This document shows, piece after piece, positions 22,546 to 44,004 of a stretch of DNA of 64,000 bases (position 1 is the first letter of the stretch; each line of letters opens with the position of its first letter). Under the pieces are notes generated by a model. It saw only the letters and a list, made by a program, of their open reading frames with translations. It was not told where the DNA came from and did not search any database. The stretch comes from an uncultured Candidatus Saccharibacteria bacterium (GTDB lineage: Bacteria; Patescibacteriota; Minisyncoccia; Phycocordibacterales; UBA9973). Location: contig CAZWAV010000001.1 of NCBI GenBank assembly GCA_964631935.1, positions 116,482-180,481 of the forward strand, given 5' to 3'. Position numbers and translations under genes: made by a program.

Positions 22546-24820
<2,275 letters not shown>

Positions 24821-26898: not shown

Positions 26899-27465
26899 AT
26901 GGATCCAATAAATCAGGCTAGTGGTGGTTCAAAGAAAGGGTTATATATCGGTATTGGTATTGTGGCTATTTTAGTTCTTGGTTTTCTATTGCGTAATTCA
27001 TTTGGTATGACACGCAATGTTAGTGTCGGTGGGTATAACGCAGAGGTTACTAAGAAATTAGATGGTTCAACAACTTATAAAAGTGATTATGGTACAGCAA
27101 CCGTAAATAGCAATAAGTGGCCAGACAACTGGCCAACAGATGTACCTAAATATAGTAATTCTACTGTCACAACCGCTGGAACAACAAATGCACAAGCTGG
27201 CCTAGAAGCATTTAACGTTGTATTTACAACTTCTGACAATTCTCAAACTGTACTCGATTTCTATAAGAGTGGGTTAACATCTTCTGGTTGGGTATCTCTG
27301 TATTCAGGTAAAGCGATTACTGGTACACAAGTCGGAGCAAATATCACTGTTAGCGCAAAGAAAGACAAGAGGAATGTTAGTCTAGTAATCACAGATTTAG
27401 GTGGCGGACAGACAAGAGCCACTCTAATGACTTACACAATGCCAGAAGTCAAAACTGGGCTGTAA
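26899..27465 (+). CDS. hypothetical membrane-anchored protein
   Basis: 188 aa with an N-terminal TM (LYIGIGIVAILVLGFLL) and a T/S-rich extracytoplasmic region. Confidence 0.35.
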   Translation: MDPINQASGGSKKGLYIGIGIVAILVLGFLLRNSFGMTRNVSVGGYNAEVTKKLDGSTTYKSDYGTATVNSNKWPDNWPTDVPKYSNSTVTTAGTTNAQAGLEAFNVVFTTSDNSQTVLDFYKSGLTSSGWVSLYSGKAITGTQVGANITVSAKKDKRNVSLVITDLGGGQTRATLMTYTMPEVKTGL

Positions 27466-27532
27466 TCTCTTAATAAAAACCCTTATTATTTAATAGGGGT
27501 TTTTATATTTATAGTTATCCACAGATATTCTC

Positions 27533-27561
27533 TTGACTGTGAACGAGCGTTCACATATACT
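27533..27561 (+). promoter_or_regulatory. sigma70-type promoter (TTGACT-17-TATACT) with embedded Cheo-type LexA box TGTGAACGAGCGTTCACA (27538..27555)
   Basis: The perfect palindrome GAAC-N4-GTTC fills the -35/-10 spacer upstream of the small-ORF/lexA operon. Confidence 0.6.
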
Positions 27562-27599: not shown

Positions 27600-27806
27600 A
27601 TGAACAGAGAACAATACGTCAAAATAATAGAGAGGGAATTGCATAACCTCAACAAGAGAATCGACATGAAGATTCTCCAAGGTGTAGAATACAGGAGAGA
27701 GGCTCGCGAGCACAAGATACTACAGAAGAAAATGCTTCAGCATTCTCGAAAGAGTTTCTTTGGAAAGTTTATATCTGCAGTACCTCAATTTCTAATATTT
27801 TTCTAA
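27600..27806 (+). CDS. small hypothetical protein co-transcribed with lexA (possible SOS-induced membrane-targeted peptide)
   Basis: 68 aa. Charged helical N-part and a hydrophobic C-tail (FFGKFISAVPQFLIFF). Its stop lies 2 nt before the lexA ATG. Confidence 0.45.
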   Translation: MNREQYVKIIERELHNLNKRIDMKILQGVEYRREAREHKILQKKMLQHSRKSFFGKFISAVPQFLIFF

Positions 27807-28389: not shown

Positions 28390-30060
28390 ATGACTCAAGC
28401 ACAGGCACTTGCCATTATGAAGACAGGAGTGAATGTGTACCTCACAGGATCTGCTGGAAGTGGAAAGACTTATCTTCTCAATCAATATATTTCATACCTA
28501 AGCGACCACGACATCCCCGTGGCTGTTACTGCATCCACTGGCATTGCTGCTACTCACATGAACGGCATGACCATCCACGGCTGGGCAGGTATTGGCATCA
28601 AAGATACCATGGATGAGCACGATATCGAACTCTTAGAAGGCAAGCAATACTTATGGAAGAGATTCGAGAAAGCTCGAGTGCTTATTATCGATGAAGTCTC
28701 TATGCTTCACGCACATCGTCTCGATATCGTCGAGCGTGTATGCCGAAGATTTAAAAGAAGCGATAAGCCTTTTGGAGGATTACAAGTTATTCTCTCTGGT
28801 GATTTCTTTCAGCTTCCTCCGATCAATCGTTCAAATGAACCAGATCTGAAAGACATGGTCCTCTATAGCGAGGCGTGGCGCATAATGGCTCCAGCTATTT
28901 GCTACCTGACTGAACAACACCGCCAAGACGATGAGATGCTCACAGGTATACTCAATGCTATACGCGACAATTCTATAGACACACTTCATTACGAAGAATT
29001 AGAGAAAAGATTAAATGCCGAGCTTGCAGATGGTGTACGCCCGACAAAGCTCTACACCCACAACGCCAATGTCGACACGGAGAACAGTGCCGAACTCGGA
29101 TCAATAAAAAGCGATGAGAAAATGTACAAGATGACTTCGACCGGTCCTGAGGTACTTGTAGAAATATTAAAGAAGAGTTGCTTAGCTCATGAAGAATTAC
29201 GACTGAAAGTCGGAGCAGAAGTCATGTGCATCAAGAATAATTTCGAAGCCGGATATGTGAATGGCTCAAGAGGTAAGGTCATCGCATTCCTAGATTCAGA
29301 TAATACTCCGATTATAGAGCTCTATAATGGCAAGACCATATACGCTACACCTGAGACATGGGCCATAGAAGAAAATGGTAAGGAGAAGGCGAGCATCAGC
29401 CAGTTACCGATACGCCTGGCTTGGGCTATTACTATCCATAAGAGCCAAGGTATATCACTCGATAATGCTGAGATAGACCTCTCTCGAGCTTTTGCCTATG
29501 GTATGGGATATGTAGCGCTCTCACGCGTGCGTACCCTCGCTGGTATTCGACTTATAGGGTTCAATCCTGACTCTCTTCGTGTTGACCCGAAAGTCTTAGA
29601 ATTCGACCAAGATCTTCGCAATGAAAGTACTCAGAATGAACTCATGTTCGGCAAGTTAAAGAAAGGCGAGCAAGAGAAACTTGAACATGATTTCATTTCT
29701 CGTATGGGTGGAATGATAAAGAAAGGCGACAAGAGAAAAGAAGCTCCGGTTAAAATTTCAACTGTTATGGTGACTAAAGAATTACTTGATCAAGGCAAAT
29801 CCATAAAGGAGATCTGCAAAGCACGAGATCTGACCCCAGGTACCATCACTCACCATATCGAACAGATCATCGAGCAATATCCAGAAACAAATATTTCTCA
29901 TATCAAGCCAAAACAAAAACATATAGACATAGTAAAGAAAGCTAACTCCACGCTCGAAGGTGAAGAAGTAGGGAAGTTAAGTCCAATCAAAATGATATTA
30001 GAGAAAGATGGGCACAAGTTATCATTTGAAGATATAAGATTGGCTAAATTATTTATATGA
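28390..30060 (+). CDS. Pif1/RecD-family ATP-dependent DNA helicase with C-terminal HTH domain
   Basis: 556 aa. Walker A LTGSAGSGKTYLL, Walker B LIIDEVSM and motif ITIHKSQG typical of SF1B helicases. It has a C-terminal HTH-like tail. Confidence 0.8.
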   Translation: MTQAQALAIMKTGVNVYLTGSAGSGKTYLLNQYISYLSDHDIPVAVTASTGIAATHMNGMTIHGWAGIGIKDTMDEHDIELLEGKQYLWKRFEKARVLIIDEVSMLHAHRLDIVERVCRRFKRSDKPFGGLQVILSGDFFQLPPINRSNEPDLKDMVLYSEAWRIMAPAICYLTEQHRQDDEMLTGILNAIRDNSIDTLHYEELEKRLNAELADGVRPTKLYTHNANVDTENSAELGSIKSDEKMYKMTSTGPEVLVEILKKSCLAHEELRLKVGAEVMCIKNNFEAGYVNGSRGKVIAFLDSDNTPIIELYNGKTIYATPETWAIEENGKEKASISQLPIRLAWAITIHKSQGISLDNAEIDLSRAFAYGMGYVALSRVRTLAGIRLIGFNPDSLRVDPKVLEFDQDLRNESTQNELMFGKLKKGEQEKLEHDFISRMGGMIKKGDKRKEAPVKISTVMVTKELLDQGKSIKEICKARDLTPGTITHHIEQIIEQYPETNISHIKPKQKHIDIVKKANSTLEGEEVGKLSPIKMILEKDGHKLSFEDIRLAKLFI

Positions 30061-30338
30061 TAAAAAAGAAAACTAAGAAATTAAGTTTGTTTACAGAGCG
30101 AGTACTAAATATTGTCTCTAGTATAAAGCGCGGTCAGACTATGACTTATAAAGAAGTGGCAGAGAGAGCCGGCAGCCCAGGGGCGGCCAGAGCTGTAGGA
30201 TCTATTATGAAAGCCAATTACAAGCCAGGTGTACCTTGTCATCGTGTTATCCGAAGTGATGGAATTATAGGTGAGTATAATCGTGGCGGCCCTAGAGAGA
30301 AATATAAAAAGCTCAAGAAAGAAGGTGCAATAAAGTAG
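30057..30338 (+). CDS. methylated-DNA--protein-cysteine methyltransferase (MGMT/Ogt) DNA-binding domain protein, stand-alone C-domain
   Basis: 93 aa. PCHRVI active-site cysteine motif and the TYKEVAERAG HTH. Its start overlaps the helicase stop (ATGA). Confidence 0.75.
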   Translation: MIKKKTKKLSLFTERVLNIVSSIKRGQTMTYKEVAERAGSPGAARAVGSIMKANYKPGVPCHRVIRSDGIIGEYNRGGPREKYKKLKKEGAIK

Positions 30339-30342
30339 GGAA

Positions 30343-31158
30343 TTAATTCATGGTTGCTCTATCTTTTATTTCTTCTAATTCTTTTATACGTTGGTCAATA
30401 TTATCCCCTAGACCTCTCATAGATATAAATTCATCCCAATCTGGAGAATCAAAAAAGGAGATTGCTTCCTTTACTTCTTCACTCTTTGCATATCTTTCCA
30501 TCTCTAAAGAGATCAGTTCTTTTTTGAGAGGTATTAATTTGGCATTTATATTTTTTATTTTCTCTGAGAGTAATATTTCGGCTTTCCAATCTAGTAATTT
30601 TGCAACACCGCTTGGCTTAACCAATCCAAGAGATATAATCTTTGTTATCTTGTCTGAAATTTCACTACTTTTTAGTAATTTTGAATTATTTGGATCTTTA
30701 AGAAGAGCACCTCGAACTTCTTCCTCAGAGAGAATTTCACGCCATTTATGATTAGCCAGAGTCTGATCAATTACATCTCGCTCCAAACGAAGTGGTTCTT
30801 GTTCACTTTCGATTTCATCTTTTTTGTACTCAATTATGGTGATTTCTTTTTCCAATCGAGGAACTTGATTAAGCTCTACAATCTGCTTTGCGTACTTTTT
30901 CTGTAATAATTCTAATTTTTCTCTATCTTTTTTATTATTTTCCAAAAGCTCTGTACGGCCCTTTTTTTGAATATTCTCTGCTTGTTTTATGTCTTCGATT
31001 GATGCCTCTGATACATCCCATGTTGAATCGATAGGTTCAGTTGATTCTCCTTCATATTTTTGTTCGGGATCATCATAGTTGAGCTTTCCGCTTAATTCTG
31101 CTTTCTTTTCAAGGTCTTTCACATCTTCTTTAGTGATACCTTTAAATGTTTCTTTCAT
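30343..31158 (-). CDS. hypothetical coiled-coil protein
   Basis: 271 aa, E/K-rich with heptad patterns. No family recognised. Confidence 0.4.
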   Translation of the reverse strand: MKETFKGITKEDVKDLEKKAELSGKLNYDDPEQKYEGESTEPIDSTWDVSEASIEDIKQAENIQKKGRTELLENNKKDREKLELLQKKYAKQIVELNQVPRLEKEITIIEYKKDEIESEQEPLRLERDVIDQTLANHKWREILSEEEVRGALLKDPNNSKLLKSSEISDKITKIISLGLVKPSGVAKLLDWKAEILLSEKIKNINAKLIPLKKELISLEMERYAKSEEVKEAISFFDSPDWDEFISMRGLGDNIDQRIKELEEIKDRATMN

Positions 31159-42727: not shown

Positions 42728-43849
42728 ATGTCTAAAAATCGACGAAGAATCATAATATTAATATGTCTTATTATAATAATCGTATTGGTAGCGGGTGGAA
42801 TTAGAGCTTCAAATGAGAAAAAGCGTAAGTTTCAAGAATTAACTGCGCAGGTACAGGGATACTCTACGACAACATCACAGAGAGTGAATAGCGCTGTTAT
42901 TACTCTCCCTGAAGAAAATACTCTTGTTGGACTACAAGATGGTAAAGGATCTTATAAACTTAAAAACTCAAAAAATGAAGGAGTAGTCATAATGGAGAAT
43001 AATTACCTAAAGACTCAATTTGTAGAAGGTATATATAAGAAAAAAGATCCAAGGCAAGATGCTATAGCCCCTATGACAGTAAGTGGTGATTCACATAACG
43101 GATCAACATATTTAATCCTGTTTAACGACCGAGGAGATGCGGCGATTGAAAAGTCATATGCTTGGATAGGTGGAGATGATAATATAATCATAGATAGTAT
43201 TAAAACATTACCTGCTGATAAAAAAGATGAGGAGTACAAAGTTGATCTATTTTATCGAAAAGATAATAAACCAAAAGAGTTAACCATACCTGTTGTGGAT
43301 GGGCACTTTAAACCAGAGGTTGATAAATCAGAGGCACCAACCAATGGCACTGCACCTTCAACACCAAGCACTACTCCACCAAAAACAGCAACGAACAACA
43401 ATCCTCCAGTAAAACCTACAACACCATCATCGCCCGTAATGTGCACCATGGAAGCCAAAGAATGCCCAGATGGATCTTTTGTAGGGAGGTCTGGCCCTAA
43501 ATGTGAATTTGCAATATGTCCTTCACCTCAGCAATCAACAAGCGCAGTAATTAATCAGAAGATATTTAGTAATGGAATTTACATAACACCACTTGAGATA
43601 GTGGAAGACAGCAGATGTCCAGCTGGTGTGAATTGTGTCTGGGCAGGTAGACTACGAATAAAAGTAAAATTAGAGAGGGGAGGACAGACCAATGAAGTCA
43701 TGACTGACCTTGGAGTAAACTCTGTAGTATTTATGGGAAAGAAAGTCACTCTTGTAAGAGCAACTCCAACTCCTAGACCAGCAGACGCTGTGCCATCAGG
43801 AGATTATAGATTTGAGTTTTCTGTAACCGACAAAGCAAGCCAGAACTAG
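42728..43849 (+). CDS. hypothetical secreted protein with T/P-rich linker and Cys-rich C-terminal region
   Basis: 373 aa. N-terminal TM, a PSTPSTTPPKTATNNNPPVKPTTPSSP linker and 6 Cys near the C-terminus. Confidence 0.45.
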   Translation: MSKNRRRIIILICLIIIIVLVAGGIRASNEKKRKFQELTAQVQGYSTTTSQRVNSAVITLPEENTLVGLQDGKGSYKLKNSKNEGVVIMENNYLKTQFVEGIYKKKDPRQDAIAPMTVSGDSHNGSTYLILFNDRGDAAIEKSYAWIGGDDNIIIDSIKTLPADKKDEEYKVDLFYRKDNKPKELTIPVVDGHFKPEVDKSEAPTNGTAPSTPSTTPPKTATNNNPPVKPTTPSSPVMCTMEAKECPDGSFVGRSGPKCEFAICPSPQQSTSAVINQKIFSNGIYITPLEIVEDSRCPAGVNCVWAGRLRIKVKLERGGQTNEVMTDLGVNSVVFMGKKVTLVRATPTPRPADAVPSGDYRFEFSVTDKASQN

Positions 43850-44004
43850 CGTTTCTTTTCTCTCCAATCGTATTCTTCTTCCTCATCATCTTTCTTATCC
43901 ACAATAGGAGTACCACAATTAGCACACTCTGTATCATAAGAACGCAAACCACATCTTGGACAAACTGGTTCTTTCTTTTCTTCTTGTTCAATTTCTTCTT
44001 CCAT
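43846..44004 (-). CDS. unannotated small acidic zinc-ribbon protein (52 aa)
   Basis: Hand-translated: MEEEIEQEEKKEPVCPRCGLRSYDTECANCGTPIVDKKDDEEEEYDWREKKR. CPRC...CANC. It shares a palindromic CTAG stop with the convergent upstream gene. Confidence 0.3.
   Translation of the reverse strand: MEEEIEQEEKKEPVCPRCGLRSYDTECANCGTPIVDKKDDEEEEYDWREKKR

Follow-up and report, generated by a model that had tools for sequence, protein, structure and literature searches.

The window, by which we mean the whole 64,000-nucleotide stretch of DNA that was analysed, contains a reading frame of 68 codons immediately upstream of lexA. Its product of 68 aa, MNREQYVKIIERELHNLNKRIDMKILQGVEYRREAREHKILQKKMLQHSRKSFFGKFISAVPQFLIFF, ends in FFGKFISAVPQFLIFF and is followed by the stop codon TAA. 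The features of the locus are listed below in the order in which they occur.

27473 to 27506, plus strand: an intrinsic-terminator-like hairpin, composed of a 15-pair stem and a T run, that closes the upstream gene (26899 to 27465)
27515 to 27523, plus strand: TTATCCACA, identical to the canonical DnaA-box consensus, with 9 nt between its end and the −35 hexamer
27533 to 27561, plus strand: a sigma-70-like promoter, TTGACT-17-TATACT, with 10 of 12 matches and with hexamers conserved in related loci
27539 to 27554, plus strand: the predicted LexA operator GTGAACGAGCGTTCAC, with the core GAAC-N4-GTTC at 27541 to 27552, inside the promoter spacer
27600 to 27806 including the stop codon, plus strand: the 68-aa gene, with an ATG start, ending 2 nt before lexA
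27600 to 27746, plus strand: the part of this gene coding for a conserved basic helical-hairpin core, residues 1–49, delimited by conservation and AlphaFold2
27747 to 27803, plus strand: the part coding for a variable basic and aromatic tail, RKSFFGKFISAVPQFLIFF, residues 50–68, delimited by hydropathy, charge, aromatic content and pLDDT
27809 to 28375, plus strand: lexA, 188 aa, starting 2 nt after the stop codon of the small gene
28390 to 30060, plus strand: a PIF1-like helicase with a C-terminal HTH_40 domain, downstream of lexA with no terminator between them
30057 to 30338, plus strand: a stand-alone methylguanine-methyltransferase DNA_binding_1 domain of 93 aa with a PCHRV motif, the last gene of the operon

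The terminator-like hairpin marks the predicted 5′ boundary of the operon. Because it closes the preceding gene and is followed by a promoter with a LexA box in its spacer, the 68-aa reading frame was assigned, at the sequence level, as the first gene of the operon. An Rfam search over the region gave only sub-threshold sRNA matches, all of them on the upstream terminator hairpin, and an RNA element in place of a gene was rejected for this reason. The perfect GTGAACGAGCGTTCAC palindrome occurs once in the 64 kb window. The box is of the Gram-positive type, and among 64 distinct promoters of related small genes, 61 have an exact copy of its GAAC-N4-GTTC core. The TTATCCACA site was exact in 52 of the 64 and had at most one mismatch in 62. 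It was always on the plus strand and, in 52 of 60 promoters, started 24–28 nt upstream of the LexA box. The background outside these promoters amounted to 7 exact copies in 330 kb of the same loci. This pattern shows the TTATCCACA site to be a conserved cis element in sequence terms, and we infer that DnaA binds to it. Two other copies are present in the window. The one at 23952 lies inside an ATP-synthase gene, and the one at 43895 has no dnaA nearby, the next downstream gene on the plus strand being a DEAD-box helicase; for these reasons they were rejected as informative sites.

The lexA product scored 127.8 bits against the LexA equivalog TIGR00498 (cut-off 110.95) and matched Peptidase_S24 at 2.2e-29. 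The Ala75-Gly76 cleavage site, Ser111 and Lys148 were invariant in 29 orthologues. With all canonical features and an autoregulatory operator upstream of the operon, the gene can be identified as a genuine lexA. The PIF1-like helicase was found in 13 of 24 genome loci and was absent from deep-branching loci, which makes it an operon member in the closer relatives only. The last gene overlaps the stop codon of the helicase.

A reading frame of 68 codons in a genome of 37% GC is by itself no evidence of a gene, and two antisense shadow ORFs were found over positions 27600 to 27806. The start codon, the frame and a length of 63–70 aa were kept in all 24 genome loci, and every change of length among them fell within the tail. 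When relatives were compared with the window sequence, pN was 0.08–0.35 and pS 0.61–1.0 per site, with synonymous sites near or at saturation; dN/dS was 0.03–0.21 where it could be computed. In the eleven closest sequences, the differences per site at codon positions 1, 2 and 3 were 0.097, 0.076 and 0.417, respectively, which means that the third position varied about 4–5 times as much as the first or second. The retention of frame, start and length, the excess of pS over pN and the codon-position pattern place the ORF above chance. They allowed us to conclude that it is a genuine protein-coding gene, evidently under strong purifying selection.

A search of 5.8 billion proteins returned 44 homologues with 64–100% identity and lengths of 42–69 aa, all of them unannotated. 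A profile search extended the set to 701 clusters (90% identity). When 1.84 billion representatives at 50% identity were searched exhaustively by HMM, 324 members were obtained (71 with E <= 1e-10), whose lengths were 42–133 aa overall and 60–85 aa in nearly all cases; no domain fusions were found among the 324. Where the records carry taxon labels, these are Paceibacteria, Paceibacterota, Nomurabacteria, Minisyncoccia or an automatic 'Saccharibacteria', that is, Patescibacteria/CPR. Searches of Pfam, NCBIfam, PHROGs, PADLOC and PDB sequences revealed nothing above noise for the 68-aa protein, the only Pfam match being a sub-threshold one to Tht1. No relatives were detected among 2.9 million viral contigs, and a phage origin of the gene was rejected on this basis. 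The protein is the first of an uncharacterised family, whose members have 60–85 aa. The initial annotation, made from the window alone, had placed a 68-aa ORF immediately upstream of lexA, at the head of a LexA-box operon, and had found no family for it; all of this agrees with our results. It had also named a reading frame that is not conserved among relatives as grounds for abandoning the idea, and this objection clearly fails, given that the frame is kept and pN is far below pS.

The linkage of the small gene to lexA is the strongest result of the analysis. There were 64 related loci whose flanking sequence was long enough to tell, and lexA was adjacent in every one. It was immediately downstream in each of the 24 genome loci, where identity to the window protein falls to 43% and where the other neighbours (rhodanese and AF_1845-like genes upstream, helicase and methyltransferase genes downstream) come and go. 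A metagenome scan seeded from a more distant subgroup gave 43 loci, with lexA adjacent in 36 of the 36 that had at least 184 nt of downstream sequence. For deep-branching members (profile E 1e-9 to 1e-8), an S24 gene of 186–190 aa lay 0–22 nt downstream in four of four cases, and the other neighbours of these four pairs were entirely different. In three of these contexts, the genes to both sides of the pair run in the opposite direction, so that the operon there appears to consist of the small gene and lexA alone. The gap from the stop codon of the small gene to the ATG of lexA did not exceed 30 nt in 43 of 49 loci, with an overlap in six; it was 72–131 nt in six loci and zero in L075. In L037 the order was reversed, and the small gene followed lexA after 4 nt, behind the same promoter boxes. 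The sole exception to the linkage was P0259, a weak and atypical relative, which has 107 aa, contains an acidic insertion and has a C-terminal segment that is truly hydrophobic. No S24 gene was found among the called genes near it, and its neighbours are small and unannotated. We regard the small gene and lexA as a conserved two-gene module in the ultra-small Patescibacteria with genomes of the Paceibacteria/Minisyncoccia type.

The structure of the 68-aa protein was predicted by AlphaFold2 with a 30-sequence alignment. Two helices, at residues 3–27 and 32–58, were obtained, joined at Gly28, with pLDDT of 83–97 over residues 1–40 and 52–57 in the tail (48–59 when the prediction below is included). 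For P0180, which is 41% identical to the window protein, AlphaFold2 gave the same hairpin, the second helix ending at residue 58 or 61 in the two predictions. Beyond it lie 11 disordered linker residues and then a helix of its own at the C-terminus (73–83, pLDDT of ~54), both at low confidence. The mean pairwise identity was 0.65 in the core and 0.30 in the tail. Residues E13, N18, I21, D22, I25, Y31, A35 and H38 were invariant, and G28 and L41 nearly so, down to ~31% identity. Helical periodicity suggests that N18, D22, E34, H38 and Y31 cluster near the turn end of the hairpin; this polar cluster may hold the structure together as a network, coordinate a metal or contact a partner. The net charge is ~+8 over 68 residues, and the family median is also +8. 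The structural neighbours of the hairpin numbered in the thousands and were non-specific, including ribosomal and ESCRT-III/PspA-type hairpins.

The possible membrane character of the tail was assessed from hydropathy (19-residue Kyte-Doolittle window, transmembrane threshold ~1.6) and from the length of uncharged runs; for a tail anchor that spans the bilayer, a stretch of some 18 apolar residues or more at the very end of the chain was taken as necessary. The best window of the 68-aa protein scored 0.85, and none of the 240 family members of 55–80 aa reached 1.6 (family median 0.13). In the tail, no more than 12 consecutive residues are free of charge here; the family median for this longest run is 8, and runs of at least 18 occurred in 3 of 255 members. 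Many close orthologues stop at ...PQF, four residues earlier. On these grounds, a tail anchor or transmembrane segment was rejected. A hydrophobic segment of bilayer length was seen only in the rare outliers P0259, P0131 and P0151, in the last of which it lies in an N-terminal extension.

The motif [small]-[F/W]-[F/hydrophobic]-x-[K/R] was present in the tail of 192 of 255 members. In the last 16 residues, about 4 aromatic residues and a net charge of +2 are typical of the family; the helical hydrophobic moment is ~0.56. The chain ends in a hydrophobic residue, which is Phe in 137 of 255 members, and the linker ahead of the tail varies from 0 to 20 residues. The tail thus seems to be conserved in character rather than in sequence, and it probably forms a short amphipathic helix, not a transmembrane segment. 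By analogy, its layout would be that of a peripheral amphipathic membrane-targeting helix, and a tail for protease recognition (a degradation signal) or for partner binding fits equally well. In MinD and FtsA, a flexible linker joins the folded domain to a short terminal helix, 8–15 residues long, that is basic and aromatic; this C-terminal layout matches the one predicted for the 68-aa protein, as a shared design and not as homology. The initial annotation had described a charged, helical N-terminal part, which the AlphaFold2 helices bear out. Its proposal of a tail-anchored small membrane peptide is contradicted by the hydropathy, the short uncharged run and the early ends of the orthologues. 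The comparison it drew with poorly conserved peptides is wrong for the core, in which nine residues are invariant down to ~31% identity.

Unrelated SOS division inhibitors adjoin lexA in Bacillus, Listeria, Staphylococcus, Mycobacterium and Corynebacterium, and the proteins in question, YneA, SosA, ChiZ and DivS, are small, have no mutual similarity and are encoded next to lexA with a LexA box of the GAAC-N4-GTTC type (PMC6851548). YneA, SosA, ChiZ and SidA are integral membrane proteins that act through a transmembrane helix, by which the lexA-linked inhibitors dock onto FtsW (PMC13396833). The size, the adjacency to lexA and the operator type are common to YneA, SosA, ChiZ, DivS and the product of the 68-aa gene. 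However, the genes of these inhibitors are divergent from lexA (PMC6851548), whereas the 68-aa gene is co-directional with lexA and almost abuts it. The inhibitors have one transmembrane helix and an extracellular part, in some cases with LysM; the 68-aa protein has neither, is predicted to be cytoplasmic and shows no homology to them.

SulA is a cytoplasmic protein of ~160 aa with a RecA-like alpha/beta fold, which sequesters FtsZ and is reset by proteolysis; in Pseudomonas, it is encoded in a lexA-sulA operon. It is similar to the 68-aa protein in being a cytoplasmic SOS effector (as predicted for the latter) that can share an operon with lexA, and the lexA-sulA arrangement makes co-transcription with lexA compatible with a division inhibitor. 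No similarity of sequence or fold to SulA was found in the 68-aa protein by Pfam, by the exhaustive profile search or in the predicted two-helix hairpin. Phage lambda Kil and Bacillus MciZ are cytoplasmic helical peptides of 40–70 aa that act on early divisome proteins. They exemplify, by analogy only, a type of mechanism open to a protein without a transmembrane helix; they are not encoded in LexA operons, have no detectable similarity to the 68-aa protein and lack the conserved aromatic and basic C-terminal tail. Sda of Bacillus subtilis is a helical-hairpin checkpoint protein of ~46 aa, with a DnaA-box promoter, that goes up on replication stress, inhibits sporulation kinases and is removed via its C-terminal residues. 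The likeness to the 68-aa protein in size, fold class and DnaA-box promoter is again one of analogy only, since Sda is not linked to lexA and has no sequence similarity to it. Patescibacteria are not known to sporulate. The small proteins gp7, of phage GIL01, and DinI adjust the SOS switch by binding to LexA or RecA, and they can serve as a model for an accessory role of the 68-aa protein. However, gp7 is phage-encoded, the DinI gene is unlinked to lexA, neither protein has a hydrophobic tail, and no Pfam or PDB match of the 68-aa protein to either was found.

We tentatively rank first the possibility that the 68-aa protein is a damage-induced effector, peripheral on the membrane, that blocks division from the cytoplasmic side. 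It was placed first because unrelated SOS division inhibitors occur repeatedly next to lexA in Gram-positive bacteria, both Firmicutes and Actinobacteria (PMC6851548), and because the LexA box is of the Gram-positive type. As the 68-aa protein has no transmembrane helix, its mechanism must differ from that of YneA, SosA and ChiZ. Its site of action would need to be the cytoplasmic face, with FtsZ or FtsA as the most plausible target. The missing helix also counts against a division inhibitor, since all characterised lexA-linked inhibitors except SulA act through such a helix. Moreover, being co-directional and tightly spaced with lexA, the gene should be expressed at all times when LexA itself is produced. 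Such expression does not sit easily with a division inhibitor, unless the protein is short-lived or takes effect only above a threshold. Membrane binding by the tail is read from composition only, in a region where AlphaFold2 confidence is low. Strict pairing of genes that overlap or nearly overlap is no less characteristic of proteins in physical contact, and a role of the protein as a partner of LexA or RecA is almost as likely as division inhibition. In that case, which we consider possible but somewhat doubtful, the hairpin would bind LexA or the RecA filament and tune operator binding or autocleavage, for example by acting as a co-repressor, by gating cleavage or by resetting the switch. 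The lineage would then have an SOS repressor made up of two proteins, whose ratio is fixed by their common transcript. Such a partnership is consistent with the adjacency in all 64 informative loci while other neighbours change, with the minimal or overlapping gaps (zero in L075), with the survival of adjacency when gene order is reversed and with the deep-branching operon that is apparently the pair alone. The conserved core with its invariant polar residues E13, N18, D22, Y31 and H38 resembles a fixed interface, and so basic a protein would be well suited to contacting DNA or an acidic surface. On the other hand, LexA is canonical throughout here and has a normal autoregulatory operator, the conserved aromatic and basic tail would be left with no obvious role, and P0259 has no S24 gene among the called genes of its context. 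To our knowledge, LexA works alone in all characterised bacteria, which also argues against an accessory protein. An obligate two-protein SOS switch, in which the hairpin comes in a fixed ratio from the transcript that DnaA and LexA both control, binds LexA and gates cleavage or DNA binding, possibly at the membrane, and joins replication-initiation status to damage, seems rather unlikely.

The linkage could also reflect shared regulation only. The product would then be a small basic protein that binds nucleic acids, or one with some other unrelated task; a damage-induced factor for nucleoid compaction, RNA binding or membrane stress is one option, and a toxin-like membrane-perturbing peptide another. 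The net charge of ~+8 over 68 residues, the generic hairpin fold with its thousands of non-specific structural neighbours and the amphipathic tail agree with this explanation. We nevertheless judge it unlikely, as shared regulation alone needs no strict adjacency across such divergence, no family member is fused to a nucleic-acid-binding domain, and neither a PADLOC or PHROG match nor viral copies were found. SOS toxin peptides such as TisB are hydrophobic throughout, whereas the 68-aa protein is mostly polar. A replication-status effector tied to DnaA, which would feed back on initiation or elongation by binding, e.g., DnaA or the sliding clamp, appears improbable. It is suggested by the DnaA box, which keeps its place in 62 of 64 promoters (one mismatch allowed) as compared with 7 copies in the 330 kb of background, by the Sda-like size of the predicted helical hairpin and by the end of the tail in the 68-aa subfamily, where QF[L/M/S]IF(F) is reminiscent of the clamp-binding pentapeptide QL[S/D]LF. 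However, the motif Q-hydrophobic-x-hydrophobic-[F/L] was present in only 30 of 255 members, and beta-clamp binding was therefore rejected as the function of the family. The candidate DnaA box could equally serve lexA, and in sequence the protein resembles neither Sda nor any DnaA regulator. Finally, the ORF could have no protein function at all, being a leader that sets lexA translation or a product of chance. The 2-nt gap to lexA would allow translational coupling, and the two antisense shadow ORFs show how easily ORFs arise in AT-rich sequence. Shine-Dalgarno motifs precede only 2 of the 36 long genes in the window, so the absence of one before lexA is uninformative, and the argument for coupling drawn from it was dropped. 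The conservation data effectively refute an ORF without protein function, to which we give next to no credence: the amino-acid sequence is under strong purifying selection, residues are invariant across 324 clusters at 50% identity, and the small gene is kept downstream of lexA in L037 and 72–131 nt from lexA in six loci.

By the sequence, the small gene is transcribed together with lexA from a single promoter, with the LexA operator in its spacer and the DnaA box just upstream of the −35 hexamer. If the 68-aa protein is a division inhibitor, it would act as follows. LexA would keep the protein low, and RecA-stimulated cleavage of LexA would derepress the operon, upon which the protein would rise; the operon may also respond to DnaA, and so to replication status. 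The product is predicted to be a very basic two-helix hairpin of ~50 residues, continued by a variable linker and a short aromatic and basic C-terminal helix. The tail would lie on the cytoplasmic face of the membrane, or double as a degradation signal, without spanning the bilayer, while the conserved hairpin would bind a conserved cytoplasmic partner. The likeliest outcome would be a transient block of division at the level of FtsZ/FtsA during the repair of damage. The small protein would do the job of YneA, SosA, ChiZ, DivS and SulA while being unrelated to any of them. An SOS-linked small effector is a plausible reading, and of the small membrane effector proposed in the initial annotation we retain a real gene in a LexA-box operon that adjoins lexA and give up the membrane anchor.

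LexA is among the best-studied bacterial regulators, and the Candidate Phyla Radiation is hard to culture, its cell-cycle control being essentially undescribed. Leaving aside the 2017 paper of Sanchez-Osuna, Barbe and Erill (Environ Microbiol 19:3465), which reportedly deals with the patescibacterial SOS network and may note the ORF as a hypothetical operon member, we know of no description of an invariant LexA partner gene. Here, a family without known relatives accompanies lexA across hundreds of CPR sequence clusters, which makes the 68-aa protein a credible candidate for a new partner or effector of the DNA-damage response. The small protein and its candidate partners LexA, RecA, FtsZ, FtsA and DnaA can be produced recombinantly, and experiments are thus feasible without culturing the organism. 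No result so far is surprising enough to upset current views; the locus provides a solid lead into SOS and cell-cycle control in an uncultured lineage. The conserved DnaA box beside the LexA box suggests that replication status and DNA damage converge on one promoter. If the protein is a division inhibitor, it would be a lexA-linked one without a transmembrane helix, and so would act differently from YneA, SosA and ChiZ. If it is a partner of LexA, it would change the view of the SOS switch in a major part of bacterial diversity.

The lexA operon, whose promoter (TTGACT-17-TATACT, 27533-27561) carries the LexA box in its spacer, was examined together with its surroundings in the window. The following features were recorded.

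26899-27465: gene of 188 aa directly upstream of the lexA operon, with a hydrophobic segment at the N-terminus
27515-27523: perfect DnaA-box consensus, TTATCCACA, ahead of the lexA-operon promoter and ending 9 nt before its -35 hexamer
28390-30338: in the lexA operon, PIF1-like helicase with a C-terminal HTH_40 domain, then a stand-alone methylguanine-methyltransferase DNA_binding_1 domain
29638-29649: further GAAC-N4-GTTC sequence, GAACTCATGTTC, within the helicase coding region
30343-31158, minus strand: ORF of 271 aa with a very high content of charged residues, convergent with the lexA operon at the operon's end
42728-43849, plus strand: ORF of 373 aa

The DNA_binding_1 protein consists of 93 aa, contains a PCHRV motif and overlaps the stop codon of the helicase. 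Both genes are present in the lexA operon of closer relatives and are missing from the deep-branching loci. The 188-aa gene was likewise found only in closer relatives; it gave no match in the Pfam scan, although the public gene table assigns it the precomputed label PF27226 'AF_1845'. The 271-aa and 373-aa ORFs matched no Pfam family at E <= 0.001. The GAAC-N4-GTTC copy in the helicase gene lacks the flanking palindrome, and its occurrence is within chance expectation, since at least two matches were found in 15 of 100 shuffled sequences.

The GC content of the window is 36.8%. A Shine-Dalgarno-like motif at -20 to -4 was detected in only 2 of the 36 ORFs of at least 200 aa in the whole window. 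Such motifs are therefore nearly absent, which makes arguments based on ribosome-binding sites unusable in this genome.

The small protein encoded just upstream of lexA belongs to a 68-aa subfamily ending in QF[L/M/S]IF(F) (residues Q63-F68, window 27786-27803), which is similar to QL[S/D]LF, the pentapeptide that binds the sliding clamp in bacteria. A clamp-type motif is carried by only 30 of 255 family members. It may be specific to this subfamily or may have arisen by chance. One distant relative differs in length and composition:

L029:3001-3324: P0259, 107 aa

P0259 contains an inserted acidic stretch (DDDEEEEE), and its C-terminal segment of 19 residues is truly hydrophobic. Its gene is surrounded by a series of small genes without annotation, and none of the genes called at this locus encodes Peptidase_S24/LexA. 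P0259 may represent either a branch of the family that is anchored in the membrane or a copy carried by a mobile element.

In a single metagenomic locus, L037 (1332-2160), the gene order is inverted:

1332: DnaA box
1369: LexA box
1395-1964: lexA
1969-2160: small gene, 4 nt after lexA

A methyltransferase-domain gene is located upstream of both boxes.

A DnaA box was also observed at the equivalent position in the related loci L005-L078. It is exact in 52 of 64 related promoters, and 62 of the 64 have it when one mismatch is allowed; the background contains 7 copies in 330 kb. A full-text literature search returned no paper combining a DnaA box with a lexA promoter. The strand of the box and its spacing to the LexA box are kept in nearly all related promoters, which suggests that lexA in this lineage of Patescibacteria is under the joint control of DnaA and LexA.
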